DNA from: Deltaproteobacteria bacterium GWA2_38_16 | GTDB lineage: Bacteria > Bdellovibrionota > JACOXK01 > 2-02-FULL-40-11 | DNA: 64,000 bases | Reading direction: 5' to 3' | NCBI GenBank assembly: GCA_001797335.1 | Contig: MGPE01000009.1 | Location: 246 to 64,245 of the forward strand | Part shown: positions 5,031-62,942 of the stretch, piece by piece | How positions within the stretch are numbered: position 1 is the first letter of the stretch | Layout: each line of letters opens with the position of its first letter | Notes under the pieces: model-generated | The model's input: only the letters and a program-made list of their open reading frames with translations | Told to the model about the DNA's origin: nothing | Databases searched by the model: none | Position numbers and translations under genes: made by a program

Positions 5031-5131
5031 AAAACGTCCTTGCTACAATAAACTACATTACATCTATTTTAATGTACTGCAATAGACACAATACCCCACC
5101 CCATAAAATGGGAATTTTCTATAGATTACAA

Positions 5132-8185: not shown

Positions 8186-8227
8186 AAAATATTCTTTATC
8201 ACATGTTGAGATAGGATTTAAAGAACT

Positions 8228-11750: not shown

Positions 11751-11754
11751 GTGT

Positions 11755-17751: not shown

Positions 17752-17761
17752 AGATGAAAAA

Positions 17762-19088: not shown

Positions 19089-19113
19089 TGTCATCCCCAC
19101 GAAAGCGAGGATC
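19089..19113 (-). repeat. Degenerate copy, in reverse orientation, of the REP-like hairpin family GGATYCCCGC-N4-5-GCGGGGATGAC.
   Basis: GTCATCCCCACGAAAGCGAGGATCT is the reverse complement of the consensus with two G-to-A changes. Located in the rsmH upstream intergenic region. Confidence 0.5.
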
Positions 19114-19169
19114 TCTCACTAGAATCTATATATAGTGTATATTAAATTTTATAACGCAAGATATAGCAC

Positions 19170-34563: not shown

Positions 34564-34588
34564 GGATTCCCGCCTTCGCGGGAATGAC
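34564..34588 (+). repeat. REP-like hairpin, copy A: GGATTCCCGCCTTCGCGGGAATGAC.
   Basis: Stem TCCCGC/GCGGGA with CTTC loop. Family consensus. Confidence 0.6.
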
Positions 34589-34681: not shown

Positions 34682-34707
34682 GGATCCCCGCTCTTGGCGG
34701 GGATGAC
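34682..34707 (+). repeat. REP-like hairpin, copy B: GGATCCCCGCTCTTGGCGGGGATGAC. It directly abuts the ATG of the gene at 34708.
   Basis: Stem CCCCGC/GCGGGG. Ends 1 nt before the start codon. Confidence 0.6.
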
Positions 34708-40365: not shown

Positions 40366-40381
40366 GAAGGAGGAACGTACC

Positions 40382-45525: not shown

Positions 45526-48500
45526 TTAAATAACACTCGTTAAGTTTCTAACGAAGGGCAGAATATGTTTCCAGTCCTCTAGATATGCAACAAATTTATT
45601 ATCCACTTTTAATTGATAGTGCTTTGGATCTTTTTTAATGAAGGTAAGTAAAACTTGAGGATCTAATGGGGTTGTCTCAGAAAATGTTAGCACCGCTTTT
45701 TGATTTCCAAAATCAAGAGCTTTTACATGTAATTTTTTTAAATAAAACTTGATCGCCATCAGTTCAAAGAGATTATATACTTGGGAAGGAAGTTCACCAA
45801 AGCGATCTTTCATTTCTGCTTCAATATCTTGAAGTTCTTCTTCAGATTCCAGAGAGGCCAACTGTCGATAAAAAGAAATTTTATCTCCCATTTCTGAAAT
45901 ATAATCTTGGGGTATATAAGCAGCAATTTTAATATTCATTTCAGGCTCAATAGCTTCTTTGATGTCTTCTCCCTTTAATTCCCGAACGGTTTCTTCTAAA
46001 AGATCCGTATAAAGTTCAAATCCAATAGCTGAAATCATACCGGACTGATCTTTTCCTAAAATATTTCCTCCACCTCTAATTTCTAAATCGTGACTGGCAA
46101 TTTTAAATCCAGATCCCAGTTCCGAGGCTCCTTGAATTACTTGAAGACGTTTCTTGGCATCGTCCGATAATCGCCCTTCTTCCGGAATTAAAAGATACGC
46201 ATAGGCTCGTTCTCGTGAGCGCCCTACTCTGCCTCGAAGTTGATAGAGCTGTGCCAACCCAAAAGTATCGGCTCGATCAATAATAATGGTATTGGCAGAT
46301 GGAATATCAATTCCACTCCCAACAATGGTAGTACAGACTAATACTTGAAATTCTTTATTTAAAAAATCGAGCATGATTTTTTCAATTGATGATTCTTTCA
46401 TTTGCCCATGCGCAAAATGAATTTTGGCCTCCGGGACGAGCTTTTGAAGATGTTTGGTCACACCCGCAATGGTTTCTACCCGATTATGAATAAAAAAGAC
46501 TTGCCCTCCTCGATGAATCTCTTGAAGCAGGGCTTCTCGAATGGTTTCATCATTAAACTGCGTCAAATAGGTTCGAATAGAAAGCCGATCTTGCGGAGGG
46601 GTATTAATAATACTGATATCTCGAATTCCCAATAGTGCCATGTGAAGAGTCCGAGGAATGGGGGTGGCTGAAAGTGTTAAAACATCCAGTGTTTTTTTTA
46701 TTTTTTTAATTTTTTCTTTATGTACCACTCCAAAACGCTGCTCTTCATCGATAATAAGAAGTCCCAAATCAAAAAATTCCACATCAGAAGATAAAAGTCT
46801 GTGGGTTCCAATAATAATATCGACTTCTCCCTTTTTTAATTTTTGAACGGTTTTAAGTTGTTCTTTTTTATTTTTAAATCGGCTTAATGCATCAACCGTC
46901 ACCGGAAATTGTTCCAGGCGCTTCATAAATACACGATGGTGTTGATCTACAAGCAACGTCGTGGGTGCTAAAACAGCTACTTGTTTTTTATCCATCACCG
47001 CTTTAAAAGCCGCTCGGATGGCCACTTCTGTTTTTCCATATCCCACATCGCCACAAATAATTCGATCCATGGGTTTAGAAGAACACATGTCAGAAAGTAC
47101 TTCTTCAATGGCTTTAAACTGATCAGTCGTTTCTTCATACGGAAAGGTGGCTTCTAACTCATGAAAATAAGAATCTGCTGGGCCAAACGAAAAACCATTA
47201 TACGTTTTTCGCGTGGCATAAATATTTAAAAGTTCATGAGCAATTTCTTGAATCCCTTGTTTTACTTTTTTCTTTGTCTTAATCCATTCCTTGCCGCCCA
47301 GTTTATCTAAATTAACTTTATTTTTATCTGCACCCGAATAACGATTAACGACATTAAGCCGATGCACTGGTAAATACAGTTTATCCCCTCCAGCATATTC
47401 AATAACCATGTAATCGCTTTCATGTTCATCAATTTTAAGACGAGTCAACCCTTGGTAAAGCCCAATCCCATGATCCACATGAACCAGGGGATCCCCAACG
47501 ATAAGTTCAGCTAAATTGGTAACAAAGGGGGCTTTTTTAGAAATGGAAATTTTAGGAATTTTCTTTCTCTCTCCAAAAATTTCTTCTTCCGCTATAAACA
47601 TTATTTTTTCTTCTTCAAATCGAAATCCCTTGGAAAGAATTCCAGACACCAACACCACATCGTACATTAAAAAAGATTGATCTTGCTTTGCTTGAGCTAT
47701 GGATTCCATCGAAAACACACTCTTTAATTCAAAAAATCTAAGCCCATAATGCTCCATAAGTTCTCGAAAGCGTTTTCGTTGTACCTGAGTATGTGCCACA
47801 AAGAAGATGGCCCATCCTTCTTGTCTTAAAGATTTTAATTTGACAGCCAAAGGATGAAGAATTTCAAGACTGGTTATTTTAAGACGTTTTAAATCGTGGC
47901 GAATGTCATCATTGTCCTGGGTTTTTAACGCAAGGACCGAAGATTTTCCTTCTAAAAATTCTAAAGGAGAAATATTCCAATACGGTTGAGGTAAAATCTT
48001 CTTCGCCCACTCTTCAGAGGGCACATAAAACTCTGCTACTTTACAAGATATGCGTCCTTGCTCAATGGCCTTTTCATAGTCCAACTGACATTCTTTCTCA
48101 AATTCTTCTAAGTTTTTTTGAATGGCAGTTTTATCAAGATAAACCACATTAAAAGAATCTGAAAAATAATCTAAAAAATGATCTGTTTTTGAGTAGAAAA
48201 AAGGAAGATAGTAATCAACCCCTGGAAAATAAACACGATGTTCTAAATACTCTACAATCTGATCCCGTTTTAGCTTAGCCACTCCCATTTCATCCGCACT
48301 TTGTTTCACTCGATCCATGGCCAACTGTTGAGTGGTTTTGGTATAAATAATTTCTCGAACGGGAATAATAGAAACTTGAGAAACTTCCTCTTCAGATCGC
48401 TGAGAGGAAGCATCAAACAACCGAATGGTTTCAATAATATCGCCTAAAAACTCTAGTCGAAAAGGATTTTGGGTTAAAGGCGGGAAAATATCTACAATTC

Positions 48501-48984
48501 CCCCACGCACTGAAAACGTCCCCCGATCTTCTACGGTTGTTACCCGGCTATACCCACTTTCTATGAGTTTTAAAAACAATTGATCTCGGTTTATTTCTTC
48601 TTCTTTTTTTAAAAAGACCGTTTGCTCCATCAGCATTTCTTGGGGGATTAATCGCTGAGACAAAGCCTCAATCGTGGTCACCACACACATGTCTTTACGT
48701 TGAAGCAATCGATATAAAATTTCTAGCCGGGCAATGACGATATCTGGATGGGGTGAAAAAGTATCAAAGGGATGAGGTTCCCAGGCTGGGAAATAACCCA
48801 CTTCTTCTTTACGCTGCGGAGAAAAAAATAAAAAATCCGCTACAAGTTCTTCAGCCTGTATAGAAGAATTGGCAATGATTAAAAGCGCTTTTTTTCTGTC
48901 ATCCCGAGACGAAGACGAGGGATCTCTTAGAAATTTGGAGAGCCAATAAGATACACTTCCCCCCTTTAATCCACTAACAACCAC
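45526..48984 (-). CDS. mfd: Transcription-repair coupling factor Mfd.
   Basis: 1152 aa. SF2 helicase motifs GDVGYGKTEVA, DEEQRFG and QLRGRVGR. UvrB-homology N-terminal region. TRG and C-terminal domain. Confidence 0.95.
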   Translation of the reverse strand: MVVSGLKGGSVSYWLSKFLRDPSSSSRDDRKKALLIIANSSIQAEELVADFLFFSPQRKEEVGYFPAWEPHPFDTFSPHPDIVIARLEILYRLLQRKDMCVVTTIEALSQRLIPQEMLMEQTVFLKKEEEINRDQLFLKLIESGYSRVTTVEDRGTFSVRGGIVDIFPPLTQNPFRLEFLGDIIETIRLFDASSQRSEEEVSQVSIIPVREIIYTKTTQQLAMDRVKQSADEMGVAKLKRDQIVEYLEHRVYFPGVDYYLPFFYSKTDHFLDYFSDSFNVVYLDKTAIQKNLEEFEKECQLDYEKAIEQGRISCKVAEFYVPSEEWAKKILPQPYWNISPLEFLEGKSSVLALKTQDNDDIRHDLKRLKITSLEILHPLAVKLKSLRQEGWAIFFVAHTQVQRKRFRELMEHYGLRFFELKSVFSMESIAQAKQDQSFLMYDVVLVSGILSKGFRFEEEKIMFIAEEEIFGERKKIPKISISKKAPFVTNLAELIVGDPLVHVDHGIGLYQGLTRLKIDEHESDYMVIEYAGGDKLYLPVHRLNVVNRYSGADKNKVNLDKLGGKEWIKTKKKVKQGIQEIAHELLNIYATRKTYNGFSFGPADSYFHELEATFPYEETTDQFKAIEEVLSDMCSSKPMDRIICGDVGYGKTEVAIRAAFKAVMDKKQVAVLAPTTLLVDQHHRVFMKRLEQFPVTVDALSRFKNKKEQLKTVQKLKKGEVDIIIGTHRLLSSDVEFFDLGLLIIDEEQRFGVVHKEKIKKIKKTLDVLTLSATPIPRTLHMALLGIRDISIINTPPQDRLSIRTYLTQFNDETIREALLQEIHRGGQVFFIHNRVETIAGVTKHLQKLVPEAKIHFAHGQMKESSIEKIMLDFLNKEFQVLVCTTIVGSGIDIPSANTIIIDRADTFGLAQLYQLRGRVGRSRERAYAYLLIPEEGRLSDDAKKRLQVIQGASELGSGFKIASHDLEIRGGGNILGKDQSGMISAIGFELYTDLLEETVRELKGEDIKEAIEPEMNIKIAAYIPQDYISEMGDKISFYRQLASLESEEELQDIEAEMKDRFGELPSQVYNLFELMAIKFYLKKLHVKALDFGNQKAVLTFSETTPLDPQVLLTFIKKDPKHYQLKVDNKFVAYLEDWKHILPFVRNLTSVI

Positions 48985-50191: not shown

Positions 50192-50452
50192 ATGGCCAGA
50201 AATTATTCTATTTATGAAGCTAAAGCACACTTAAGTAAGCTGCTTCGCATTGTAAAGCAGGGGCATACGGTAACCGTATCTGAACGAGGAAAACCGATTG
50301 CAAAAGTTATTCCCATTTCTGAGGGAGAATCTGCTCTCAAGCGACTTAAAAATCTAGAAGAATGTGGCCTACTCATTCGCGCCAAATCCAAAACGTTTCC
50401 TAAGGGGACCAAAGTTTTAGGTGGCCTCGAAAGATTCCTGGAAGATCGATGA
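50192..50452 (+). CDS. Type II antitoxin, Phd/YefM family.
   Basis: MARNYSIYEAKAHLSKLLRIVKQGHTVTVSERGKPIAKVIPI matches the Phd/YefM N-terminal pattern. 4-nt overlap (ATGA) with the downstream PIN toxin. Confidence 0.8.
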   Translation: MARNYSIYEAKAHLSKLLRIVKQGHTVTVSERGKPIAKVIPISEGESALKRLKNLEECGLLIRAKSKTFPKGTKVLGGLERFLEDR

Positions 50453-50838
50453 ACGTCCTCTATTGTGATAGCTCAGCCATCGTCTGCCTTTTACTCGAAG
50501 AAGAAGCCCATGCTACCTATCGTCAATATCTTAAAAAGGCAGATGAAATTATCAGCTCCAATTTGATTGAGGCTGAAATTCTAGCAGTTGCAACCCGAGA
50601 AAAAATAAATCCATCGAAAGCTTCCCTATTTATTGAACCTATCACCATGATTACACCTGATCGAAGCCTTGCACTGGAGTATCAACAAATTTTTAAAATA
50701 GACTATTGTAGAGGCGCAGATGCTTATCATTTAGCCTGTGCATTATATTTAGATCCTCGCGCCAAAGAACTTCTTTTCTTAACAGCAGATCAACGTCAAA
50801 AAAAAATTGCACATAAGTTGGGTTTTCAAACCATTTAG
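50449..50838 (+). CDS. vapC: Type II toxin VapC (PIN-domain ribonuclease).
   Basis: PIN acidic residues: D in YCDSS, E in IEAEIL, D in GADAYHLA, D in TADQ. About 130 aa. Confidence 0.8.
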   Translation: MNVLYCDSSAIVCLLLEEEAHATYRQYLKKADEIISSNLIEAEILAVATREKINPSKASLFIEPITMITPDRSLALEYQQIFKIDYCRGADAYHLACALYLDPRAKELLFLTADQRQKKIAHKLGFQTI

Positions 50839-51779
50839 TCCGCACGCCTCATTAAATAAGCAAAAATAGCATCGGTTAAATGATAGCGAAAAGAGGATGG
50901 GGTATTGCTAGATGGCGATTCTAAGACCGTATCGGCATGATCGGCATCTATAATTCCCAAATCTGTTCCCACATTTAATAGTTTTTGCCGCTGAACTGTT
51001 ACCATTCCATCATTGTCACCAAAAGTATCTAAATATTTTGCTCCCCAACCAATTCCAATAGACATCCCTACTTTTTGGCTGGTTCGTAAAAAATAAATAG
51101 GGACGGGATGCCTGGCTAAAGCATCAATAACCTCTTTAGAAAAAATTCGATCAGACTCGTACGTGGTTAGGGATTTTAACCCTTCTTCCCCAAAAGGGAA
51201 AAAATTAACCAAAGAATTTTTCTCTTCGGCTCGGGAAGGATCCCCCATAAAAAAATCAGCTATTTCACTTCCAAAAGCAGCTTGAATCGTAAGCACAGCG
51301 GCTATCATCTGAGAAGTTTTTTGAGGTTCATGATACAGCATCTTTAAAACTTCCGGCCCTCCCTTGCTATGAGCCATCATGATGAGTTTTTTATGATGTC
51401 TTTCATAAATTTCTTGGCTTTGTTTGAGAAGAATTCCTGCATTTTCTTCAACAGAATTGCTTGAACTGGGTCTTAAAATATAGACTTCCTCACCGGGAAC
51501 ATATTCTTTTAATCGATCACGATTATCTCCAAAATATCGGCCCATCCAACCGGCTCCTTCATTTAAAAAGCCAGTCACAAATATCCACACATAACGCTGA
51601 CTAATTTCCTTATCTTCTTCCGTAATTTCTAAAGATCCTTTTTGGGCATTTTCATATAATTTTTGAAAGTCAGGCGTTTTTTCTTGTGCCACCAAAGTCA
51701 CACTTAAAAGCAATATAAAAATACACACGAATTTATTCATCCCGGGCATCTTACTTTTAGTGAACTTCATTGACAACAT
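50835..51779 (-). CDS. Secreted alpha/beta hydrolase. Putative lipase/esterase, LCAT/PGAP1-like.
   Basis: Signal peptide. GxSxG-type nucleophile elbow AHSKGG. Later Asp and His candidates. Confidence 0.55.
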   Translation of the reverse strand: MLSMKFTKSKMPGMNKFVCIFILLLSVTLVAQEKTPDFQKLYENAQKGSLEITEEDKEISQRYVWIFVTGFLNEGAGWMGRYFGDNRDRLKEYVPGEEVYILRPSSSNSVEENAGILLKQSQEIYERHHKKLIMMAHSKGGPEVLKMLYHEPQKTSQMIAAVLTIQAAFGSEIADFFMGDPSRAEEKNSLVNFFPFGEEGLKSLTTYESDRIFSKEVIDALARHPVPIYFLRTSQKVGMSIGIGWGAKYLDTFGDNDGMVTVQRQKLLNVGTDLGIIDADHADTVLESPSSNTPSSFRYHLTDAIFAYLMRRAD

Positions 51780-51824: not shown

Positions 51825-52256
51825 ATGTATACGCAATTTACAACCATTCTTCTCTTCTTAATCATTGGTGCTTGTATGGTTCCTCTTATTCTTTTGGTAG
51901 GCCGATATCTCCGCCCGGCCAATCCGGATCCTAAAAAACTATCTACCTATGAGTGCGGGGAACTTCCTAAAGGAAACTCTTGGGTTCAATTTAATTTACG
52001 ATTTTATGTGATCGCCATTTTATTTTTGATTTTTGATGTTGAAATTGCCTTTATGTTTCCAGTGGCTGTAACATTTCGTCAATGGGTTACTTCTTCTCAA
52101 GCCAAAGGAGTGCTCATTTTTAGTGAAATTATTCTTTTTATTGCTATTTTACTAATTGGATTTGTCTACGCCTGGACAAAAGGCGATTTTGAATGGATTA
52201 AGGGTTTACAAAAAAAACAAATAGATCCCCGCTTTCGCGGGGATGACTTAAAATGA
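51825..52256 (+). CDS. nuoA: NADH-quinone oxidoreductase subunit A (ND3).
   Basis: YECGELPKG...LRFYVIAILFLIFDVEIAFMFP signature. The C-terminal residues DPRFRGDDLK are encoded by a REP-like element. Confidence 0.9.
   Translation: MYTQFTTILLFLIIGACMVPLILLVGRYLRPANPDPKKLSTYECGELPKGNSWVQFNLRFYVIAILFLIFDVEIAFMFPVAVTFRQWVTSSQAKGVLIFSEIILFIAILLIGFVYAWTKGDFEWIKGLQKKQIDPRFRGDDLK
52223..52247 (+). repeat. REP-like hairpin, copy C: AGATCCCCGCTTTCGCGGGGATGAC. It overlaps the nuoA 3' end and lies 5 nt before the nuoH ATG.
   Basis: Stem CCCCGC/GCGGGG with TTTC loop. Same family as the copies at 34564, 34682 and 19089. Confidence 0.6.
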
Positions 52257-53359
52257 CATCACTTCCTGAATTTTTAAAAGAATTATTTGAATCTTGGCCT
52301 CTCCTAGGAATCTTACCGGTTTGGTTTTATAGTATTGTGGCTATTTTTGGTCTTCTTTTTCTCTTTTTATTTCCCTTTGCCGGAGTGGCTGTTTACGTTG
52401 AACGAAAAATTGCAGGAGATATTCAAGCCCGCATTGGTCCCAATGTGGTTGGCCCCTATGGAATCTTGCAGTGGATTGCCGATGCATTAAAACTTCTTCT
52501 TAAAGAAGATATTATTCCTACCAACGCTGATAAAAAACTTTTTATTCTTTCTCCCATGCTTATTTTTATAAGTGGTGCCTGTGCCTATGCCGTTATTCCT
52601 TTTGCTGATAATGTTATTTTGGCCAATCTCAATATTGGTATCTTTTATCTCCTGGCTATTACCTCTATGGTTACTTTGGGACTTATCTTAGGAGGATGGG
52701 CATCCAATAACAAATGGTCTCTCTTGGGGGGACTTCGAGCCGCTGCCCAGGTAGTTTCTTATGAAATCCCTGTTGCTTTAAGTATTTTAACCGTTGTTTT
52801 GGTCACGGGAACTTTGGACATGGCTCAAATTGTAAAAATGCAAGGCCCTTTTTACTGGAATATTTTTCATAACCCCTTCTTATTTATTTCAGCCTGTATC
52901 TATTATATAGCAGCTCTGGCAGAAGCTAATCGAACCCCTTTTGATATCCCAGAAGCAGATTCGGAACTGGTTTCAGGCTATAATACTGAATATAGTGGCA
53001 TGCGATTTGCCATCTTTTTTCTCATTGAATACGCTGAGTGCTTTATTATTTGTGCGGTTGCAACCACTCTCTTTTTAGGAGGGTGGCATCTTCCCTTTTT
53101 TGATCTTTCCTCCTTAACCTTGGGACTTCGAATTCCTCTTCAAATCATGGTCTTTATGACAAAATCTATTCTACTACTCCTTACGATGATGTGGATTCGT
53201 TGGACATTACCTCGGTATCGGGTGGATCAGCTGATGAAACTTTGTTGGGAAGTGTTTGTTCCCTTTTCTTTTGCCTGTCTTATTGGAACTGCCTTTTGGA
53301 TGGTGCTATTTAAAGGAAAAGGAATTCCTGAACTTATTTTGGGATTATTTGTATCATGA
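52253..53359 (+). CDS. nuoH: NADH-quinone oxidoreductase subunit H (ND1).
   Basis: VERKIAGDIQARIGPNVVGPYGILQ and the conserved TM loops of NuoH. Confidence 0.93.
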   Translation: MTSLPEFLKELFESWPLLGILPVWFYSIVAIFGLLFLFLFPFAGVAVYVERKIAGDIQARIGPNVVGPYGILQWIADALKLLLKEDIIPTNADKKLFILSPMLIFISGACAYAVIPFADNVILANLNIGIFYLLAITSMVTLGLILGGWASNNKWSLLGGLRAAAQVVSYEIPVALSILTVVLVTGTLDMAQIVKMQGPFYWNIFHNPFLFISACIYYIAALAEANRTPFDIPEADSELVSGYNTEYSGMRFAIFFLIEYAECFIICAVATTLFLGGWHLPFFDLSSLTLGLRIPLQIMVFMTKSILLLLTMMWIRWTLPRYRVDQLMKLCWEVFVPFSFACLIGTAFWMVLFKGKGIPELILGLFVS

Positions 53360-53850
53360 CTTCATACGATAGTTTATTTTATGTATTTGCCGCTGTGACT
53401 ATCATTCCAGCCATTGTCACTGTTTTTCATCCCAATATCCTCTATGCTGCCTTGTCTTTATTTGGTTCTTTTTTTGGCGTTGCAGGAATTTATGTACTTT
53501 TAGGAGCAGATTTTATCGCTGCCACTCAAGTTTTAATTTATGTAGGGGGCATTCTAGTTCTTATTTTATTTGCCGTTATGCTTTCTAAAAATATTTATGG
53601 AATGACCTTTCAAGATGAAAAAAAGAAAAAAATACTCCCTACCCTCTTTGGTATATTGCTCTTGGGATTTCTCATTAAACTCATTACAACGGTTCACTGG
53701 AACACAACTCTTTCAGAAGAAGGTCCCCTTCCCACGACTGCAGCTTTAGGAAATTTACTATTAACAGAGTATCTACTGCCATTTGAACTGGCTTCTGTTT
53801 TATTGTTAGCGGCTTTAATTGGAGCCATCATTTTAGCGAGGAGCAAATGA
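53356..53850 (+). CDS. nuoJ: NADH-quinone oxidoreductase subunit J (ND6).
   Basis: Size, TM pattern and position between nuoH and nuoK. The nuoI gene normally found between nuoH and nuoJ is absent. Confidence 0.85.
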   Translation: MTSYDSLFYVFAAVTIIPAIVTVFHPNILYAALSLFGSFFGVAGIYVLLGADFIAATQVLIYVGGILVLILFAVMLSKNIYGMTFQDEKKKKILPTLFGILLLGFLIKLITTVHWNTTLSEEGPLPTTAALGNLLLTEYLLPFELASVLLLAALIGAIILARSK

Positions 53851-54155
53851 CCGTCGAACTACACCACTACTTAATTTTATCTTCTATCTTGTTTGTACTT
53901 GGTATTATTGGGATTATTTCTCGGAAAAATTCTATTGGAATTTTGATGGGCATTGAACTCGTGATGAATGCCTGTGGAATTAACTTTGTGGCCTTTTCAA
54001 AATACATTGCTTCTGACTTTTCAGGACAAATTTTTGCCTTATTCATTTTTGTCATTGCCGCTGCAGAAGTGGTCGTAGCATTGGCCATTGTGCTAAGAAT
54101 TTACCAAAATAAAGCAACCATCGATATTGAAGAGGTTAAAGATTTAAAATGCTAG
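53847..54155 (+). CDS. nuoK: NADH-quinone oxidoreductase subunit K (ND4L).
   Basis: About 100 aa, three TM helices, with GIELVMNA-type motif. Confidence 0.9.
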   Translation: MTVELHHYLILSSILFVLGIIGIISRKNSIGILMGIELVMNACGINFVAFSKYIASDFSGQIFALFIFVIAAAEVVVALAIVLRIYQNKATIDIEEVKDLKC

Positions 54156-56143
54156 ATCCTTTTATTGTAAAACTTTTCCCAACTTTAGACCCTATGCTTG
54201 TTATTATTTCGGCCATTCTTTTTTCTCCTTTGGTAGGTTTTGTAATTCAATTTTTTATGGGGGAAAAGCTCTTTCGAAAAGGCGATTGGGTATCTCTAGG
54301 CGCTATTTTTATTTCTTGGGTTTTAACTCTCTTTTTATTTTCAGATTTTGTACACTCCCAAAACGCCCATTTTAAGTGGGTCATGTCTTGGCCATGGATT
54401 GCTTTACCCAGTTTTTCTTTAGGAATGGGAATCCTTTTAGACAGCACTACTATTCTCATGCTTTTGGTCATTACAACGGTAAGCTTTCTCGTTCATCTTT
54501 ATTCCACCGGATACATGCAGGGGGATCCCAGATATAGTCGTTTTTTTGCTTATCTTTCTTTCTTTTCTTTTTCGATGATTGGGCTTGTGCTTTCAGATAA
54601 TCTTTTTGCTCTTTATGTTTTCTGGGAATTGGTTGGACTTTCTTCTTATCTTCTCATTGGTTTTTGGTTTGAAAAACCTTCTGCTGCCAATGCCAGTAAA
54701 AAAGCATTTATTGTCACGCGCGTTGGGGATGTAGGAATGTTTATTGGAATTTTAATTATCTTTTTTCAAACCAATGGACTTTTAAAATTTGAAGATATTT
54801 TTTCTTTTCTTTCCAAAAGTTCTTTTAACGGTGAATTTTTGGGTCTTTCTCTTCTAACGTTGGCGGGACTATGCATTTTTATGGGTGCTGTTGGAAAATC
54901 GGCCCAATTTCCCCTTCACATTTGGCTCCCAGATGCCATGGAAGGCCCCACGCCTGTTTCTGCTCTGATTCATGCGGCTACAATGGTGGCAGCAGGAGTT
55001 TATCTGGTTACCCGCATGTTTCCTTTTTTTACCCCAGAAGCTTTAACCTGCATTGCCTATGTAGGCGCCTTTACCGCTATTTTTTCAGCTACGATGGCCT
55101 TAACCCATAACGATATTAAAAAAGTATTGGCTTATTCGACGGTCAGTCAGCTGGGATATATGATGATGGGCCTAGGTGTTGGGGCAACCATAGCCGGATT
55201 TTTTCATTTGGTCACACATGCTGCTTTTAAAGCATGCCTCTTTTTATGTTCAGGAAGTGTTATTCATGCACTTCACACGCAGGATTTAAGAGAAATGGGG
55301 GGACTTCGCAAAAAAATGCCCATTACATTTGTCACCATGCTCATTGCTACATTGGCCATTTCAGGCGTTCCTCTTTTTTCTGGCTTTGTTAGTAAAGACA
55401 TGATTTTGGGAGGAACACTTTCTTTTGTCTCCAATCATCCAAATCACTTTTTAATCCCCATTTTTGGATTTTCCGCTGCGGCTTTAACGGCCTTTTACAT
55501 GTTTAGACTTATTTTTATGACTTTCTTTGGCACCGCTCGCGACTCCAAAAAATTTGAACATGCACATGAAAGCCCTTTTAATATGACGCTTCCTTTAATT
55601 ATTTTAAGTCTTTCATCTTTTGCCATTGTATTTACGCCCCTTCATTTTTGGATTGAACAAGAAGAAATACCTGAAAACATACATCATCTGGCCACCGTTC
55701 TTTCTCTTTTTGTGGCTGGAAGTGGCATTTTACTTTCATATCTTATGTATATGAAAAAAGTTTTAAACCCTGACACTCTGGCTCAACGTTTTAAATATAT
55801 CTATAACACCCTCATCCACCTTTATTGGATTGATGAACTCTATGAATGGGCTATTTTAAATAATGTCGTTCGTCTGAATAATCTTTTAGCTCATTTTGAT
55901 AACCGAGTTATTGATCAAGTGATGGTGGATGGCTGGGCTCCCGTGACCATTCAAACATCAAGAGGTTCTGGCAATTTTGATAATCGAGTTATTGATGAGC
56001 TCTTAGTCGATGGGACAGGACAAATGGTGGGAGCTTCAGGGAAACAAACGGTAAAAATTCAAACTGGGAAAGTGCAACAATATATTTTGGTAGGACTAGG
56101 GTCTGTCTGTGTATTATTAATTCTACTAACGCTTATTTTATGA
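54149..56143 (+). CDS. nuoL: NADH-quinone oxidoreductase subunit L (ND5), with a long C-terminal extension.
   Basis: WLPDAMEGPTPVSALIHAATMVAAGVYL antiporter-like core. 664 aa. C-terminal tandem FDNRVID-x4-VDG motifs. Confidence 0.93.
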   Translation: MLDPFIVKLFPTLDPMLVIISAILFSPLVGFVIQFFMGEKLFRKGDWVSLGAIFISWVLTLFLFSDFVHSQNAHFKWVMSWPWIALPSFSLGMGILLDSTTILMLLVITTVSFLVHLYSTGYMQGDPRYSRFFAYLSFFSFSMIGLVLSDNLFALYVFWELVGLSSYLLIGFWFEKPSAANASKKAFIVTRVGDVGMFIGILIIFFQTNGLLKFEDIFSFLSKSSFNGEFLGLSLLTLAGLCIFMGAVGKSAQFPLHIWLPDAMEGPTPVSALIHAATMVAAGVYLVTRMFPFFTPEALTCIAYVGAFTAIFSATMALTHNDIKKVLAYSTVSQLGYMMMGLGVGATIAGFFHLVTHAAFKACLFLCSGSVIHALHTQDLREMGGLRKKMPITFVTMLIATLAISGVPLFSGFVSKDMILGGTLSFVSNHPNHFLIPIFGFSAAALTAFYMFRLIFMTFFGTARDSKKFEHAHESPFNMTLPLIILSLSSFAIVFTPLHFWIEQEEIPENIHHLATVLSLFVAGSGILLSYLMYMKKVLNPDTLAQRFKYIYNTLIHLYWIDELYEWAILNNVVRLNNLLAHFDNRVIDQVMVDGWAPVTIQTSRGSGNFDNRVIDELLVDGTGQMVGASGKQTVKIQTGKVQQYILVGLGSVCVLLILLTLIL

Positions 56144-56153
56144 GGAGAGATAT

Positions 56154-57707
56154 ATGACATTGCCAAATATCATCATGGATCATTTACTGACAGGAATCGT
56201 CTTTTTACCTGTTATAGGAATATTAATTATCTTACTGCTCCCCAGCAATCGTCCTTCTCTCATCCGCTGGACATCAGCAGCATTCACGTTTCTCCCCTTA
56301 TGCATCGCTGCAGAACTTTTTTTACTTTTTAATCGCAATGAAGCTGGCTTTCAATTTGTAGAAAAATTTTCTTGGATCCCCACTTTTAATATCCATTATT
56401 ATATCGGAACCGATGGTCTTTCCATCACCATGCTTTTATTGACAGCACTTCTTTCTTTCCTTTGTGTTTTTGCCTCGTGGGGTATTACTCAAGGTGTAAA
56501 AGGCTACTTTACAATGTTTCTTCTCTTAGAAGCCGGCATGATGGGTGTGTTTGTTGCCCTTGATTTTTTCCTTTTTTATATTTTTTGGGAACTCATGCTT
56601 TTGCCTATGTATTTTCTCATTGGCATTTGGGGAGGTCCTAAAAAAGAATATGCTGCTATTAAATTCTTTTTATATACCCTCTTTGGTTCTGTCTTAATGC
56701 TCGTTGTCATGTTAGCCTTTTATTTTTACTCTGATCCGCATACGTTTGATTTAGTAGAACTGGCTAGGCCTGGAATCTTAAAAATAAAAGATTTAACCAT
56801 TTTTGGATTGCCTATCACCATTGCTCTTTTTAAAAAGATTTTATTTATTCTTCTTTTTATTGGCTTTGCGATTAAAGTCCCTATTTTCCCTTTTCATACA
56901 TGGTTACCGCTGGCCCACGTAGAAGCTCCTACTCCGATTTCAGTAATTCTTGCCGGAGTGCTTTTAAAAATGGGTGCTTATGGACTGCTTCGAATTAGTT
57001 TTCCTATTTTACCCCAAGAAACCTATTGGTTTTCTTATGCCTTGGCCATTTTAGGACTTATTAATATTGTTTATGGTGCTTTTTGTGCGATGGCTCAAAT
57101 TACGCTTCCTCAAGAAAAAGGAGGCAATGATTGGAAAAAACTCATTGCCTATTCTTCCATTAACCACATGGGCTACGTGCTTTTAGGAATGGCCGCCTTT
57201 ACCGTTGAAGGAATCAATGGGGCTGTCTTTCAAATGTTTAACCACGGCATTACTACCGGCATGCTCTTTCTATTAGTAGGCGTCATTTACGATCGTGTTC
57301 ACCATAGACGCATTGATGGATTTGGTGGGCTTCGAGTTAAAGCTCCTATTTACACATCGATTGTTGCTCTGGCTTTTTTTGCTTCTTTAGGACTTCCTGG
57401 CCTTTCAAGTTTTATTTCAGAAGCGTTGGTCTTTTTAGGATCTTTTAAAGTCTATCCATCTCTCACCATTCTAGCCACGATTGGTATTCTCATTAATGCT
57501 GCTTTTTTCCTGTGGGTTTTACAAAAAATATTCTTAGGGCCTCTGAATACTACGTATAAAGATCTCTCTGATATTAATTTTAGAGAGCTCGTTACCCTAG
57601 TTCCTTTAGCCGTATTGGTCATTTTTTTAGGGGTTTTTCCGATGCCTATTTTAGATTTAATGAAAATAACTTTAGATAAACTTTTAACCGTTATTCAATC
57701 TGTGTAA
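56154..57707 (+). CDS. nuoM: NADH-quinone oxidoreductase subunit M (ND4).
   Basis: Antiporter-like core (WLPLAHVEAPTPISVILAGVLLKMGAYG). Confidence 0.93.
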   Translation: MTLPNIIMDHLLTGIVFLPVIGILIILLLPSNRPSLIRWTSAAFTFLPLCIAAELFLLFNRNEAGFQFVEKFSWIPTFNIHYYIGTDGLSITMLLLTALLSFLCVFASWGITQGVKGYFTMFLLLEAGMMGVFVALDFFLFYIFWELMLLPMYFLIGIWGGPKKEYAAIKFFLYTLFGSVLMLVVMLAFYFYSDPHTFDLVELARPGILKIKDLTIFGLPITIALFKKILFILLFIGFAIKVPIFPFHTWLPLAHVEAPTPISVILAGVLLKMGAYGLLRISFPILPQETYWFSYALAILGLINIVYGAFCAMAQITLPQEKGGNDWKKLIAYSSINHMGYVLLGMAAFTVEGINGAVFQMFNHGITTGMLFLLVGVIYDRVHHRRIDGFGGLRVKAPIYTSIVALAFFASLGLPGLSSFISEALVFLGSFKVYPSLTILATIGILINAAFFLWVLQKIFLGPLNTTYKDLSDINFRELVTLVPLAVLVIFLGVFPMPILDLMKITLDKLLTVIQSV

Positions 57708-57710
57708 ATA

Positions 57711-59186
57711 ATGAGTAATTTAACCTCTAGTTTAATGCTCTATTCTAGCGAAATCATCTTAACGTTGACGCTCTCTTTTGTCTTAATCATCCACATGATT
57801 TCTCGGAATAATTTTCTGACATTTTTAACGGCTCTGGTGGGACTTGCTGCTGCAGCTCTTGCAGTGGGAACGTTATATAGCTATGCCCCTCAATTTTATT
57901 TTTCAAATCACTTAAGCCACGATCCTTTTAGTCTCTTTTTTAAACTCTTTTTCATTGTTGCTACTTTTTTTACGTTTCTTTTTAGCTACCGTTCCTATGA
58001 AATTGACTCCAATAGAACCGCTGAATTTTATCTTCTCACCCTTTCTGTTACCCTAGGCATGTGCACGCTGGTTTCTTCTTTAAATCTACTCACTCTTTAT
58101 CTTTCCTTAGAACTCGTAAGTATTGTTTCTTATGCCCTGGCTGGATTTAGAAAAGAACACCCCGCATCTAATGAAGCAGCCATTAAATATCTTTTATATG
58201 GAGCGTTTGCATCGGGGACCATGCTTTTTGGGATGTCTTTATTATATGGACTCACAGGCTCTTTAAATATTTATTCTATTAATGCTACCTTATCGACCGC
58301 CTTTTTAGATCCTTTGGTTTTATATTCAGTACTTTTGATGATTCTTTTTGGATTTGGATTTAAAATTTCCATGGCTCCCTTCCATATGTGGGCTCCGGAT
58401 GTGTATCATGGAGCGCCCACCCCAACGGCCGCTTTTTTTACCGTAGCCCCCAAGGCTGCCGGATTTGCTGTCTTCATTCGCTTTTTTTATACCGTTTTTG
58501 CCAACATGGGAACTACTCCCAATCAGTGGGATGAACTGACTAATCTCAATTGGGCACTTATTCTTTCTATTTTATCTGCCATTACGATGACCATTGGAAA
58601 TTTAAGTGCTCTTCGGCAAAAAAATGCCAAACGAATGTTGGCGTATTCCAGTATTGCACACGCAGGATATATGCTCATGGGATTTATTGTTTTAAATAAA
58701 CAAGGGCTTTCTTCCGTCTTATTTTATCTAGCTATTTATTTTTTCATGAATTTTGGTGCTTTTTTTGCCGTAGGATTAGCTTCTAACAAATTTAAAAATG
58801 AAGAAATTTCTAGTTTTAAAGGATTGGGGTGGACATCTCCCTTATTGGGAGTTTCTTTGGCCATATTTTTATTTTCTTTAACAGGCATTCCGCCTTTTGG
58901 CGGATTTATTGGGAAAGTATATTTATTTTCAGCACTGGTTCATAAAGAGTTATATTGGCTACTCCTTATTGCTATTTTAAATACCGTCATCTCGCTTTAT
59001 TACTATACGTATTTGGTCCGAGAAATGTTTTTACAAAAATCTAAGGATTCCGAAAGTGTAGCGCTTACCCCCCTTCATACAATAGCGCTACTTCTTTTGG
59101 TTATTCCAACCCTTGTCTTTGGCATTTACTGGGAACCTTTATTAGCCTTTGTCTCCCACTCACTTCAATTTATCGTCACTCCGTAA
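57711..59186 (+). CDS. nuoN: NADH-quinone oxidoreductase subunit N (ND2).
   Basis: MAPFHMWAPDVYHGAPTPTAAFF and AYSSIAHAGYML motifs. Confidence 0.92.
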   Translation: MSNLTSSLMLYSSEIILTLTLSFVLIIHMISRNNFLTFLTALVGLAAAALAVGTLYSYAPQFYFSNHLSHDPFSLFFKLFFIVATFFTFLFSYRSYEIDSNRTAEFYLLTLSVTLGMCTLVSSLNLLTLYLSLELVSIVSYALAGFRKEHPASNEAAIKYLLYGAFASGTMLFGMSLLYGLTGSLNIYSINATLSTAFLDPLVLYSVLLMILFGFGFKISMAPFHMWAPDVYHGAPTPTAAFFTVAPKAAGFAVFIRFFYTVFANMGTTPNQWDELTNLNWALILSILSAITMTIGNLSALRQKNAKRMLAYSSIAHAGYMLMGFIVLNKQGLSSVLFYLAIYFFMNFGAFFAVGLASNKFKNEEISSFKGLGWTSPLLGVSLAIFLFSLTGIPPFGGFIGKVYLFSALVHKELYWLLLIAILNTVISLYYYTYLVREMFLQKSKDSESVALTPLHTIALLLLVIPTLVFGIYWEPLLAFVSHSLQFIVTP

Positions 59187-59203
59187 AATTATATCCCCTT
59201 TAG

Positions 59204-59236
59204 GTGTTTCAAAAGCTTGAAACACTTTGTTATTTT
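59204..59236 (+). terminator. Rho-independent terminator of the nuo operon: 9-bp perfect stem GTGTTTCAA/TTGAAACAC, loop AAGC, then TTTGTTATTTT.
   Basis: Read directly, 18 nt after the nuoN stop. Confidence 0.65.
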
Positions 59237-59282
59237 ACCCTATTGAGTTTCTGAAACTTCCCTGTTATAGCCTTTCCCAACC

Positions 59283-60053
59283 ATGAATGACCAAAGAGCT
59301 ATACAAAGTGTACTTCAGTCGAAACTGACAGAGTTTCAATTAAAAAACACTGCCTTTTCACTTCGTGCTTTTTCAAATAGGCTTGGAATGAGCCCAGGGG
59401 CCGTTTCTCAAATTTTGAATGGAAAAAGATTTGTTTCTAAAAAGATAGCCCAAAAAATTTGTGATAAACTTCTCTTAGATCCTCAAGAAAAATCAGAGAT
59501 TGTTGGGCTTTTTCCTGAACAAAAAAAAGAACTCTTAAATAATACTGCTTTAGAACCCAATTATCTTCAACTTCAGTCAGACCAGTTTCGAGTGATTTCA
59601 GATTGGTATTATTTGGCCATTCTCTCTTTAATGAAAACCCGAGGGTTTAAACAAAGCCCACAATGGATATCTAAACGTCTTGGCATATCCCAGAAAGAAG
59701 CCAAAGAGGCCATGACCCGATTAAAAAGATTGGGGCTCATTGAGAAAGATAAAAAGGGTGGGTTAAAGCGTTCCGTTCCACGTTATCGAACCTCTGATGA
59801 CACAAAAGATGTATCTGTACAAAAATCTCATTTTCAAAGCTTGGAACTCGCACAAAAGTCATTAACAACGGATCCCGTTCAAGAAAGAGATTTTACTTCA
59901 ATCACCATGGCCATTAATTCTAAGAAATTGGCTGAAGCAAAAGTTTTGATTCGAAAATTTCAAGATGAATTAAGTGGTCTTTTAGAAGATTCCACCCCTG
60001 ATCAAGTGTATCGATTATGTGTTCAACTTTTTCCATTAAGTCAAGGGAGGTAA
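59283..60053 (+). CDS. Helix-turn-helix DNA-binding protein. From memory it resembles the TIGR02147-type family (N-terminal XRE-like HTH plus a second winged-helix-like segment).
   Basis: LRAFSNRLGMSPGAVSQILNGKR HTH, and DWYYLAILSLMKTRGFKQSPQWISKRLGIS. Its stop codon lies inside the RBS of the first paralog gene. Confidence 0.6.
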   Translation: MNDQRAIQSVLQSKLTEFQLKNTAFSLRAFSNRLGMSPGAVSQILNGKRFVSKKIAQKICDKLLLDPQEKSEIVGLFPEQKKELLNNTALEPNYLQLQSDQFRVISDWYYLAILSLMKTRGFKQSPQWISKRLGISQKEAKEAMTRLKRLGLIEKDKKGGLKRSVPRYRTSDDTKDVSVQKSHFQSLELAQKSLTTDPVQERDFTSITMAINSKKLAEAKVLIRKFQDELSGLLEDSTPDQVYRLCVQLFPLSQGR

Positions 60054-60058
60054 ATAAT

Positions 60059-61690
60059 ATGCGTAACTTATTCTATATCGGACTTTTAATGGCAGGGCTC
60101 ATCTCACCCACTTTTGCTGGAGATAAAGTAGGAAATGGGGGAGATGTCGTGGTTTGCCGGAATACAGTAAATGAAGTTACTTCGATTGAAGCCTTAGATA
60201 TTTATGAAGGGAGAGTGCGCTGGACTATCGAACTTGATTTGGGAGATGCTTCTTTGTCTCCTCTTCAAAAAGTGGAATTGGCTCTTTCAAGGTTAGGGCG
60301 AATTTCGTCTATCCGAGCAGAGAGGTATTTAGAAAAAGCCAAGCAGTTTGACGCTAACGCTCTCTTTTTAGATAATACCGAGCTTCCAGATATTTCTGAT
60401 TCTAACCATTTAATTTTTCCAAAAGGCTGTAAAGTCGAACAAATTATTGTCCAACGAACTCCTCATTTTTCAGATGATAGACGATATTTGGTCAGTAATG
60501 ATCTTTGGAAACAACTAGACTCTACAAATAAAGCTGCTCTTATACTTCATGAAATTATTTATGAAGAAGCATTAGAATTTGGGCATCAAGATTCTGTCCC
60601 TACCCGTTATTTTAATGCTCATCTCATGTCCCATCGATTTGAAACTTTTACGCCAAAAGAAATGGCTGCTTTTTTTAAGACAATTGATTTTAAGAAATTT
60701 GATTATCAAGGTTTTATTTATGCTTCTTCTAGACTTGAATGCCATCACCAATTCATCAAAGAAGAGATGTGGCCCATTCAATTTTTTGATAATGGCATGG
60801 TTGTTAAAAGTGGCTGTATTTTAAGTGGCTCTATCGAAGTTCAAGGACAAAAAGCAAATGTGGCAGGATTTATTTCTTTTCATGATAACGGACAGCCTCA
60901 TTCTTTCATGGCCAGTTCTCCCGATCCACAAAAACCACTCATGGTCAGAATTAATGAAAAAGATTATGCCCCATATGATGGGGGAGAAATCCAGCTCTAT
61001 CAAGATAGTAGTTTGAAAGCGGTCGTTTTGGCCTTAGATGATAAAAATGGATTAGTTTTTGAATCCACCAATTATTCTTTGAATACAGTCGCAGTCGATA
61101 ATCCATGGGGAAAGGGGAGTCGTCCCTTAACTGTAATCCTTTATCCGAATGGGGGCATAAGTAGCCTGATAGCCATAGAACCAGATAGGCATTATCCCAA
61201 ACAAATTAAAGGATGGGGAATGAGTCGAGGTCAAAGGATATATATTAGATCAAATCGTGTTGATTTTTTTTCAGATGAAACTGTAAAAATGGCAACCATC
61301 TCTTATGAAACACCTTTAACTTTTACGATTGATGAGCATCAGTTGAAATTTGCAGGGTATGTAGAGCTCTACGAAACAGGGGAATTAAAAAGTGGTATTT
61401 TCATTGCAGAACCTCAGAAATCGTTCTGGGGAAATACGTACTTTGAAAAAATAGCGATTCCTTTTTTGGTCGGAGATCAAAAAACTAAATTTTGGCTAAA
61501 AAAAGAAACAAATGATTGGTTTGAAGGAAGATATATTCACTTTTATCCTGGATATAAAGTTAAACAAGGAATGTTAGCGCAGTCCGCAACATTTAAAACT
61601 ACGGATGGGCAAACAATCGTTGTTCAAGAAGGACAGATAGTATCTTTAGATGAACAAGGACGATTATTACAGGGGCAAAGTGAATACTAA
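60059..61690 (+). CDS. Secreted paralog 1 of a tandem family. Conserved signal peptide plus GDKVGNGGD leader, with a C-terminal region of MORN_2/YwqK-like repeats. The ORF track begins at an upstream Met at 60017.
   Basis: RBS GGGAGG 8 nt upstream. MRNLFYIGLLMAGLISPTFA|GDKVGNGGDVVVCR. Repeated Y/F-x-NG-x-(L/V)KSG motifs (FFDNGMVVKSG, FHDNGQPHSF, LYPNGGISS, LYETGELKSG). Confidence 0.75.
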   Translation: MRNLFYIGLLMAGLISPTFAGDKVGNGGDVVVCRNTVNEVTSIEALDIYEGRVRWTIELDLGDASLSPLQKVELALSRLGRISSIRAERYLEKAKQFDANALFLDNTELPDISDSNHLIFPKGCKVEQIIVQRTPHFSDDRRYLVSNDLWKQLDSTNKAALILHEIIYEEALEFGHQDSVPTRYFNAHLMSHRFETFTPKEMAAFFKTIDFKKFDYQGFIYASSRLECHHQFIKEEMWPIQFFDNGMVVKSGCILSGSIEVQGQKANVAGFISFHDNGQPHSFMASSPDPQKPLMVRINEKDYAPYDGGEIQLYQDSSLKAVVLALDDKNGLVFESTNYSLNTVAVDNPWGKGSRPLTVILYPNGGISSLIAIEPDRHYPKQIKGWGMSRGQRIYIRSNRVDFFSDETVKMATISYETPLTFTIDEHQLKFAGYVELYETGELKSGIFIAEPQKSFWGNTYFEKIAIPFLVGDQKTKFWLKKETNDWFEGRYIHFYPGYKVKQGMLAQSATFKTTDGQTIVVQEGQIVSLDEQGRLLQGQSEY

Positions 61691-61717
61691 TTATTCTTTG
61701 CAAAGGAGGTAAATAAT

Positions 61718-62926
61718 ATGCGTAACTTATTCTATAGTGGACTTTTAATAATGAGCCTGCTCTCACCCACTTTTGCTGGAGATAAAGTAGGCAATGGGGG
61801 AGGCGCTGTTGTTTGTAGAAGTTTGACTGATAACAGCGTTTTTTCTTCAGAATTACTTGATTTATGGGAAGGTAAAGAATTCCTTGATCTTTCCATACCA
61901 GAATCATCAAAAGAGGTGAATGAACAGCATTTGTCTGCATTAGAGGTAATAAGAAATGTAGGAAAACCAGAGAAAAAGTTGTCTGACAAAAATCTTCTTA
62001 ATTCTATAAGTGATTTCACAGAAAGAATTTATTTAGATATTTTAGAGGCCACTCGTCATATCGATAATTCAACAAGCGATCTGCCTTTGGATATGGGTAT
62101 CAATTTAACCAATGATATTTATGCAGTCTACTATAAGAAGACATTACGAAGTATGAGCACGCCGAACCTTCGATGTGGATTAGAGATGGTGGCATATTAT
62201 AGGCCAGATGGCACTTTAGAGAGAGACACTGAAATCTATGACCATTTTACGTTAACCAGTAAAGCCGCTTTAAAAACACACGAATCTATTTACAAGGCAG
62301 CCCGAGAATTTTCAACCTTTGCTCATGGAAAGAAAAAAGTTTTAAATGATTCAAGAGACGTTAGAGAACTTGTTGCGTATTTATATTCTCAAGAACCAGA
62401 CCAGGGTAAAATTTTAAATAGTCTTCACGCTCTCTTCGGTTATCGCCCAACTGAGCAGAAATATGTTGATGTTAAACCCGATGATCATCAAGAAACAAAT
62501 CTCAGGATCTCAATTCTTACATCCAAAAGTCTCGAAAAAGGGGGATTTATAGATAGTTTTATAGATCGAGAAAGTTTAAGGGGAGTCCAACTCGGTTACA
62601 ATGCTTATTTATATGATGAAACACGCTCAAATCCTGTTAAAATTTCTGGGGCAACATTAGATTCAAAACAGAATCCAAAAGAACGCTTTTTGTTGTCTCA
62701 AAACATACAGGACTTACGTCATAAAATAATCTATATTGAGGGTTTTTTCTCACCTCGTCGTAATGCAACTGAGTACCTGAGAGAAGACTCGATAGAAATG
62801 ACCGTTGCGGTAAAACTTGAATTATTGGGTAACAATGATGTCGTTTTGGCGGAGAGGTCTGGCACATTAATCTTTTCAACAAATACGCTTGAACCCTTTG
62901 TCATGCTTTTCTGTGAACTATATTGA
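61718..62926 (+). CDS. Secreted paralog 2. Same leader as paralog 1, divergent body.
   Basis: AAGGAGGTAAATAATATGCGTAACTTATTCTATA 5' region near-identical to paralogs 1 and 3. MRNLFYSGLLIMSLLSPTFAGDKVGNGGGAVVCR. Shared internal motif AALKTHESIYKAAREF versus AALILHEIIYEEALEF in paralog 1. Confidence 0.75.
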   Translation: MRNLFYSGLLIMSLLSPTFAGDKVGNGGGAVVCRSLTDNSVFSSELLDLWEGKEFLDLSIPESSKEVNEQHLSALEVIRNVGKPEKKLSDKNLLNSISDFTERIYLDILEATRHIDNSTSDLPLDMGINLTNDIYAVYYKKTLRSMSTPNLRCGLEMVAYYRPDGTLERDTEIYDHFTLTSKAALKTHESIYKAAREFSTFAHGKKKVLNDSRDVRELVAYLYSQEPDQGKILNSLHALFGYRPTEQKYVDVKPDDHQETNLRISILTSKSLEKGGFIDSFIDRESLRGVQLGYNAYLYDETRSNPVKISGATLDSKQNPKERFLLSQNIQDLRHKIIYIEGFFSPRRNATEYLREDSIEMTVAVKLELLGNNDVVLAERSGTLIFSTNTLEPFVMLFCELY

Positions 62927-62942
62927 AGAGGAGGTAAATAAT

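Follow-up and report, generated by a model that had tools for sequence, protein, structure and literature searches.

A contig of Deltaproteobacteria bacterium GWA2_38_16 (MGPE01000009.1), analysed here over a window of 64,000 nucleotides, carries an operon of seven nuo genes, nuoA-H-J-K-L-M-N, that encode all seven core subunits of the membrane (P) module of a complex-I-type enzyme. The subunits are recognised by Pfam and NCBIfam models at 3e-26 to 6e-199, and the seven open reading frames (ORFs) are all intact and on the plus strand (51825-59186). The set is equivalent to the seven ND subunits that mitochondria encode (ND3, 1, 6, 4L, 5, 4 and 2). This equivalence had been pointed out in a first-pass annotation of the window, which also proposed the gene content and order, the overlap of nuoA with nuoH by 4 nt and a terminator after nuoN. 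All of these proposals hold, as the features of the operon indicate:

51825-52256, plus strand: nuoA (ND3 homologue), 143 amino acids; PF00507, 5e-34
52253-53359, plus strand: nuoH (ND1 homologue), 368 amino acids; PF00146, 3e-115; start overlaps the nuoA stop (ATGA)
53356-53850, plus strand: nuoJ (ND6 homologue), 164 amino acids; PF00499, 2e-39
53847-54155, plus strand: nuoK (ND4L homologue), 102 amino acids; PF00420, 3e-26
54149-56143, plus strand: nuoL (ND5 homologue), 664 amino acids; NF005141, 6e-199
56154-57707, plus strand: nuoM (ND4 homologue), 517 amino acids; TIGR01972, 9e-175
57711-59186, plus strand: nuoN (ND2 homologue), 491 amino acids; TIGR01770, 7e-119
59202-59237, plus strand: terminator-like hairpin with T-rich tail, 3' of nuoN; 11-bp stem, -11.3 kcal/mol, z = -2.5

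Consecutive genes overlap by 4 nt at A/H, H/J and J/K and by 7 nt at K/L, and are separated by 10 nt (L-M) and 3 nt (M-N); the seven genes are packed as a single translationally coupled unit. In canonical operons, B-C-D stand between A and H, and I stands between H and J. Here A is followed directly by H, and H by J. A promoter-like region that had been claimed upstream is not supported above chance, since sigma-70-like sites number 18 in the region versus 22 expected, and the nuoA leader has 0. By eye, a perfect TTGACA is visible at ~51770, with a poor -10 element.

A NuoH protein that is identical residue for residue is encoded on 23 contigs from independent groundwater assemblies, including GCA_001798315.1. 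Loci overlapping the window (L001, L090, L091 and L095 in our numbering of loci) have 0 mismatches to it across the overlaps, and L090 and L091 match it exactly across 12283 shared bases. Because the same arrangement occurs on these 23 contigs, an assembly artefact is ruled out.

No gene for the quinone (Q) module (nuoB, C, D, I) or the N module (nuoE, F, G) accompanies the operon. Profiles built from 80 related loci give no match to NuoB, C, D or I across the 64-kb window, and tblastn searches with E. coli NuoB, CD, E, F, G and I find no match in the window and the identical DNA that flanks it, from about -9.1 to +81.8 kb. These ~91 kb of contiguous DNA hold 14 nuo genes, and every one encodes a membrane subunit. 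Peripheral-arm genes are found neither within 10 kb outside either window end nor beyond the second nuo cluster described below. Thus, the absence reported in the first-pass annotation is confirmed and, as nuoB-CD-I is not present immediately outside the window, the operon stands as a self-contained unit.

Two broader searches also failed to locate the peripheral arm of the source organism. A NuoC seed from a distant lineage (L097, below) gives 55 matches, and the source organism is absent among them. A lineage-specific NuoC DNA pattern was detected in only two contigs of JGI metagenomes, both from the L097 lineage. One insert in NuoC, QSWSGHGTED, is specific to that lineage. When the window was scanned against Rfam, there were 0 matches.

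The operon (cluster 1) is the first of two. The second (cluster 2) starts 8,489 bp past nuoN, which is 3.7 kb outside the window end:

~67675-74750 in window-equivalent coordinates (L090 15958-21209; L092 876-7945), same contig: nuoA'-H'-J'-K'-L'-M'-N' (cluster 2)

Cluster 2 likewise lacks B, C, D, I, E, F and G, as judged by tblastn. The clusters are 37-43% identical, subunit for subunit, and the paralogues NuoH and NuoH' only 41-43%. Among solved structures, the NuoH of cluster 1 is nearest to chloroplast and cyanobacterial NdhA (264 bits, versus 212 for Thermus and 206 for E. coli), whereas NuoH' of cluster 2 is nearest to Thermus Nqo8 and E. coli NuoH (289 and 286 bits). Because their nearest structures differ and they belong to separate clades (below), the two membrane arms are of different complex I ancestry, as old paralogues or xenologues. 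Downstream of cluster 2 are a convergent gene for a SelB-like GTPase, a gene for a TPR protein, and serS.

Genome contigs were scanned by NuoH alignment, in which none of the matches listed exceeds 56% identity, and 80 loci were used to compare gene order. Among the matches listed, nuoA directly precedes nuoH in 5 of the 80 loci from GTDB species with the nearest NuoH. The relatives that bear on the arrangement, some of them metagenome-assembled genomes (MAGs), are as follows:

L094 (GCA_040960315.1; 85-86% NuoH identity): AHJKLMN, a trm112-like gene, A'H'J'K'L'M'N'
L096 (GCA_016198185.1): two clusters, with a toxin-antitoxin pair and one gene between them
L087 and L089 (2.98-Mb contig; "Bdellovibrionales bacterium" MAG): clusters in direct tandem, mfd-gpsA upstream
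L013, L016 and L022 (Bacteriovoracia, including Bacteriovorax sp. BSW11_IV): PPIase-mfd-nuoAHJKLMN, with anchors as in the window
L097, L098, L100 and L101 (distant lineage; 57% NuoH identity): cluster 1, then A'-C-E-F-H'-J'-K'

Tandem or near-tandem pairs of P-module operons are thus seen in L094, L096, L087 and L089. In the L097 lineage, cluster 2 (L097 15032-16765; L098 4357-8948) keeps nuoC, E and F and lacks B, D, G and I. The order A'-C-E-F-H'-J'-K' of L097 and L098 is an intermediate state of cluster 2.

The chromosomal site is also shared, as defined by two anchors upstream of the operon:

45526-48984, minus strand: mfd, synteny anchor (Pfam; blastp synteny; gene tables of L087 and L089)
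43376-44200, minus strand: gene for a SurA-like peptidyl-prolyl isomerase (PPIase), second synteny anchor (blastp synteny with Bacteriovoracia)

The order PPIase-mfd-nuoA is common to the window, L013, L016 and L022, and mfd-gpsA-x-nuoA is found in L087 and L089. The L097 cluster is not linked to mfd. The source is labelled by NCBI as an unclassified deltaproteobacterium; the synteny, together with the DUF4423 regulator and PilS/PilR genes described below, is compatible with Bdellovibrionota.

A neighbour-joining (NJ) tree was built from the seven concatenated subunits of 76 clusters (2257 columns). The cluster-1 clade, which includes the window, L094, L097, Bacteriovoracia and Bdellovibrionales, has 100% bootstrap support, as does the cluster-2 clade; in a tree of NuoH only, the values are 61% and 100%, respectively. 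Cluster 1 has canonical ABCDHIJKLMN operons as its sister groups, and cluster 2 has A-C-D-H-J-K-L-M-N clusters without nuoB and nuoI. A comparison of operon structure among related taxa, as had been recommended, thus finds the A-H-J-K-L-M-N order conserved and the clusters monophyletic. Both cluster arrangements are older than the divergence of the groups compared.

The order nuoAHJKLMN is also found in MAGs labelled Calditrichaceae and Ignavibacteria (L025 3699-7239; L077 9462-16714), which branch outside the Bdellovibrionota clade. Because these loci lie elsewhere in the NuoH tree, the A-H arrangement also arose independently. The L077 cluster is flanked by genes for a MacB/HlyD exporter and a peptidase, and its flanks encode no redox partner.

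Other arrangements were observed among the loci compared. A "delta proteobacterium" MAG in the sister group of cluster 1 has two full nuoABCDHIJKLMN clusters in tandem (L008 7448-20519). The order nuoA-C-D-H-J-K-L-M-N, which lacks the Fe-S subunit genes nuoB and nuoI, is present in L038, L071, L078, L081 and L083, whose hosts are MAGs labelled NC10, Methylomirabilales, Vicinamibacterales and others; in the concatenated tree, L078 and L081 are sister to cluster 2. In six loci (L045, L073, L017, L019, L053 and L082), no further nuo gene can be recognised within 10 kb of nuoH on its strand.

The subunits of cluster 1 retain almost all positions that are invariant in at least 95% of canonical sequences (316/319). 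Retention is complete for A (15/15), J (13/13), K (14/14), L (95/95) and M (84/84), and is 56/58 for H and 39/40 for N. We also compared residues of the proton channels and the E-channel that are known from mutagenesis work on E. coli; their identities in E. coli K-12 were verified by alignment. Both clusters have NuoA K46/E51/D79/E81, NuoH E36/R37/E157/D213/E216/E220/E228, NuoK E36/E72, NuoL E144/K229/K399/D400 and His residues, NuoM E144/K234/K265/E407, and NuoN E133/K217/K247/K395. The sole differences among the checked residues are E218D and K303E (E. coli numbering) in the NuoH of cluster 1.

Ratios of nonsynonymous to synonymous divergence (dN/dS) relative to L094 are 0.08-0.14 for cluster 1 and 0.09-0.23 for cluster 2, although these values are approximate because dS exceeds 1. 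By this measure, cluster 1 is more conserved than cluster 2, and NuoH is the best-conserved subunit of cluster 1 (0.076). Because the channel and quinone-site residues are kept and dN/dS is ~0.1, we predict that cluster 1 specifies a working membrane arm, with NuoB, C, D and I required in trans.

The quinone cavity of complex I is formed by NuoH and NuoA together with NuoB and NuoD. The loops that NuoH and NuoA contribute to it are intact in cluster 1, namely the NuoH loop between transmembrane helices 5 and 6 (PFDIPEA-D/E-SELV...) and the YECG loop of NuoA. These intact loops suggest that the P module docks to a canonical Q module. The peripheral-arm genes are therefore presumably placed elsewhere in the genome, which is the best inference from the kept residues and agrees with a suggestion of the first-pass annotation. 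The accompanying idea that the peripheral arm might exist in more than one version was not borne out; multiplicity is seen for the membrane arm.

Membrane-arm-only nuo operons are already present in the literature, and the locus described here is an ordinary, well-conserved example rather than a new arrangement. All Bdellovibrionota studied, whether predatory or not, have been reported to carry nuoAHJKLMN at one shared chromosomal position (PMC13147790, 2026). A second nuo cluster coexists with it, and in Peredibacter starrii HCB2-198 this cluster has 14 genes and is 37.5-41.5% identical (PMC13147790). Earlier, the nuo operon of Bdellovibrio was termed "split" in a study that used a Bdellovibrio NuoD (PMC4758237, 2015). 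The operon in our window resembles the Bdellovibrionota cluster in its A-H-J-K-L-M-N order without peripheral genes, its mfd neighbourhood, its monophyly (100% in the NJ tree) and its divergent second cluster. It differs from the named loci in that its NuoH is only 47-53% identical to theirs and its host is a groundwater MAG. In addition, cluster 2 is also membrane-only here, 8.5 kb of lineage-specific cargo lies between the clusters, and nuoA carries an insertion of a repetitive extragenic palindromic (REP)-like element.

Taken together, these data probably reflect a functional P-module operon of a complex-I-type pump, the first of two anciently diverged operons that are neighbours at the mfd site of a lineage related to Bdellovibrionota. 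Cluster 1 probably derives from an 11-subunit-type nuoABCDHIJKLMN enzyme. Cluster 2 represents a separate lineage that is more like the enzymes of Thermus and E. coli, with some peripheral genes left in relatives (nuoC-E-F in the L097 lineage). The seven proteins of cluster 1 would be made via translational coupling and then inserted into the membrane. We infer that they dock to a quinone module of NuoB, C, D and I, with or without NuoE, F and G, that is encoded elsewhere; this module might be dedicated to cluster 1 or might be the same set that cluster 2 uses. Quinone reduction at the interface of NuoH, NuoA, NuoB and NuoD would then drive proton pumping via NuoH-J-K-A and the antiporter-like subunits L, M and N.

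Two points weigh against this interpretation. Peripheral-arm genes are not found within the ~91 kb inspected, which moreover come from a MAG. Should there be a single B/C/D/I set per genome, as the Peredibacter paper implies, then cluster 1 would have to assemble onto the Q module of another complex I clade, and subunit mixing between clades is described as rare (Spero et al., PMC4453560).

A specific version of the same interpretation is that a single set of Q and N modules serves two P modules, which act as alternative membrane arms. The resulting isoforms would differ in the quinone they prefer, in ion specificity, in stoichiometry or in how they are regulated. We hold this version only tentatively, as a possibility of some weight. 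It fits with the finding that two complete P-module operons without Q or N genes are side by side in at least five lineages, and that both are under purifying selection with catalytic residues intact. Peredibacter, which has nuoAHJKLMN and only one cluster of 14 genes (PMC13147790), hints at arm sharing, and there is a precedent for module sharing in Syntrophobacter fumaroxidans, which has one nuoEFG and two copies of the remainder (PMC4453560). However, the NuoH paralogues are only 41-43% identical and belong to different complex I clades; thus, docking to one Q module would need co-adaptation. That one peripheral arm assembles alternately with two anciently diverged membrane arms, one 11-subunit/NDH-1-like and the other Thermus/E. 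coli-like, is somewhat unlikely.

Alternative membrane subunits on a common core are familiar from the NDH-1 isoforms of cyanobacteria (NDH-1L, NDH-1MS and others). The similarity to the present case extends to NuoH of cluster 1, which is closest to NdhA among solved structures. Cyanobacteria swap only NdhD and NdhF, the homologues of NuoM and NuoL, whereas here the whole P module is doubled, including the quinone-site subunits NuoH and NuoA. Complex I genes are also distributed over several loci in myxobacteria, Rickettsia and cyanobacteria, where they stay functional; for example, myxobacteria have nuoEFJKLMN and nuoIHGDBA (PMC2330069). In those groups, however, a single gene set is split, and the breaks do not cleanly match the border between membrane and peripheral arms, while in this lineage the cut falls exactly between the P module and the Q and N modules, and the P module is present twice.

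The P module might instead pair with an electron-input module unrelated to Nuo, as the first-pass annotation had entertained; this could be a novel Fe-S protein or one that resembles a hydrogenase or a formate dehydrogenase. Other partial complex I operons have recruited flavodoxin (Campylobacter) or F420H2 (archaea) (PMC4453560). No gene for a redox protein lies in the window, in the interval between the clusters or adjoining either cluster in any of the relatives examined. A search for redox partners in the window and beside AH-type clusters of other phyla turned up polysaccharide, pilus, toxin-antitoxin and secreted-protein genes instead. Moreover, the partners of known NuoH homologues are all NuoB/NuoD-like, and the loops through which NuoH and NuoA touch NuoB and NuoD are fully conserved. 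An alternative input is, on this evidence, improbable.

Another proposal is that the seven subunits need no redox module and act as a stand-alone cation/proton antiporter like Mrp (also called Mnh or Pha). NuoL, M and N are homologous to the Mrp antiporter subunits MrpA and MrpD, and NuoK is homologous to MrpC. A related speculation, that of an "extra proton pump," exists for the partial operons of Salinispora, Streptomyces and Kocuria (PMC6676996). However, Mrp complexes have no NuoH or NuoA, whereas here NuoH, NuoA and a full NuoJ are present, MrpB, E, F and G are absent, and L, M and N score higher with Nuo models. NuoH is in fact the best-conserved subunit (85-86% identity to L094; dN/dS as above), and its quinone-cavity loop residues are kept even though they would be free to drift without a Q module. 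We therefore regard a stand-alone transporter as highly doubtful.

The actinomycete operons just mentioned, which have been called "marine adaptation genes" in Salinispora, Kocuria flava and marine Streptomyces (PMC6676996, PMC8622039), are similar to cluster 1 in having the same seven genes in the same order, as an extra membrane-arm-only operon beside other nuo clusters. They occur in another phylum and are accessory and patchy there, whereas cluster 1 is ancestral and better conserved than its paralogue.

Finally, the locus might be the decaying remnant of an operon that was deleted, or the contig of this MAG might be chimeric. Nothing more than the absence of B, C, D and I speaks for either idea, and both are effectively refuted by identical DNA on 23 contigs of independent assemblies, seven intact ORFs with dN/dS ~0.1, and an arrangement kept across class-level divergence at 100% bootstrap.

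The seven-gene operon recurs in Bdellovibrionota, in marine actinomycetes and, independently, in MAGs labelled Calditrichaceae and Ignavibacteria. Each such orphan membrane arm of complex I poses the question of whether it shares a peripheral arm, has its own arm elsewhere, or works solo. The lineage described here is a clean test case, with two conserved P-module operons side by side and intermediate states of cluster 2 in relatives. If one peripheral arm does serve the membrane arms of two clades, this would contradict the notion that complex I is inherited and functions only as co-adapted subunit sets. In that event, swapping of whole P modules across clades might serve to adjust the stoichiometry, the quinone site or the ion that is pumped; predatory relatives, for instance, might do so between their attack and growth phases.

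A REP-like element is located at the junction of nuoA and nuoH, and additional copies are found in the window:

52223-52247, plus strand: REP-like palindrome in the 3' end of nuoA, 5 nt 5' of the nuoH AUG; 25 bp, AGATCCCCGC-TTTC-GCGGGGATGAC
19090-19114, minus strand: copy, intergenic
34564-34588, plus strand: copy, intergenic
34682-34707, plus strand: copy with 5-nt loop, intergenic; abuts the ATG of the ORF at 34708-35520

The family conforms to the pattern RGATYCCCGC-N4-5-GCGGGRATGAC and is 25-26 bp in length. Four copies in 64 kb, three of them intergenic, compare with 0.08 in shuffled sequence. The last 11 codons of nuoA (IDPRFRGDDLK) come from the inserted element. In L094 the protein ends ...EWIKTIRSKKEP, versus ...EWIKGLQKKQIDPRFRGDDLK in the window, where the frame runs on across the element to a TGA overlapping the nuoH ATG. 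In the mRNA, the element is predicted to fold into a hairpin (-15.7 kcal/mol, z = -4.7). Because this hairpin ends 5 nt ahead of the nuoH start, translation of nuoH is presumably dependent on coupling to nuoA termination.

The first-pass annotation was correct that the element is real, yet its proposal that a rearrangement at this point formed the A-H junction is rejected. All six relatives examined (L094, L087, L089, L013, L016 and L022) have the junction, none has the element there, and the cluster is monophyletic and much older than the species. Because relatives share the junction without the element, the element was inserted recently, at the level of this species, and did not give rise to the gene order.

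The interval between the two nuo clusters is occupied by an insert that begins within the window:

59283-64000, plus strand: start of the 8.5-kb insert between the nuo clusters; continues in L090 to 14499

It contains genes for a DUF4423 regulator, four paralogous secreted proteins, a small ORF, and a GT87 glycosyltransferase on the opposite strand. The regulator has a helix-turn-helix domain of the TIGR02147 type and is followed by the four secreted paralogues. These are 402-543 amino acids long, have no Pfam match and share an almost identical signal peptide, MRNLFYIGLLMAGLISPTFAGDKVGNGG.

Several other genes reside upstream of the operon in the window:

2581-19038, minus strand: dcw cluster, ftsZ-ftsA-ftsQ-murB-murC-murG-ftsW-murD-mraY... 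(Pfam table of identical L095 DNA)
38713-43267, plus strand: PilS-like histidine kinase, sigma-54-dependent PilR-like regulator, prepilin peptidase, UbiE-family methyltransferase
50192-50838, plus strand: Phd/YefM-PIN toxin-antitoxin pair, between mfd/dsbA and nuoA
50835-51779, minus strand: secreted 304/314-amino-acid protein with no Pfam match, between mfd/dsbA and nuoA

The region with PilS, PilR and prepilin peptidase is compatible with the type IV pilus lifestyle of Bdellovibrio-like organisms. The toxin-antitoxin pair and the secreted protein are missing at this position in relatives and are therefore lineage-specific insertions into the mfd-nuo interval. Approximately 4-8 kb 5' of the window start (L095 2122-5995) is a microcompartment locus adjoining ligA, with genes for BMC-H, CsoS1D-like and EutN/CcmL shell proteins and an aldehyde dehydrogenase.

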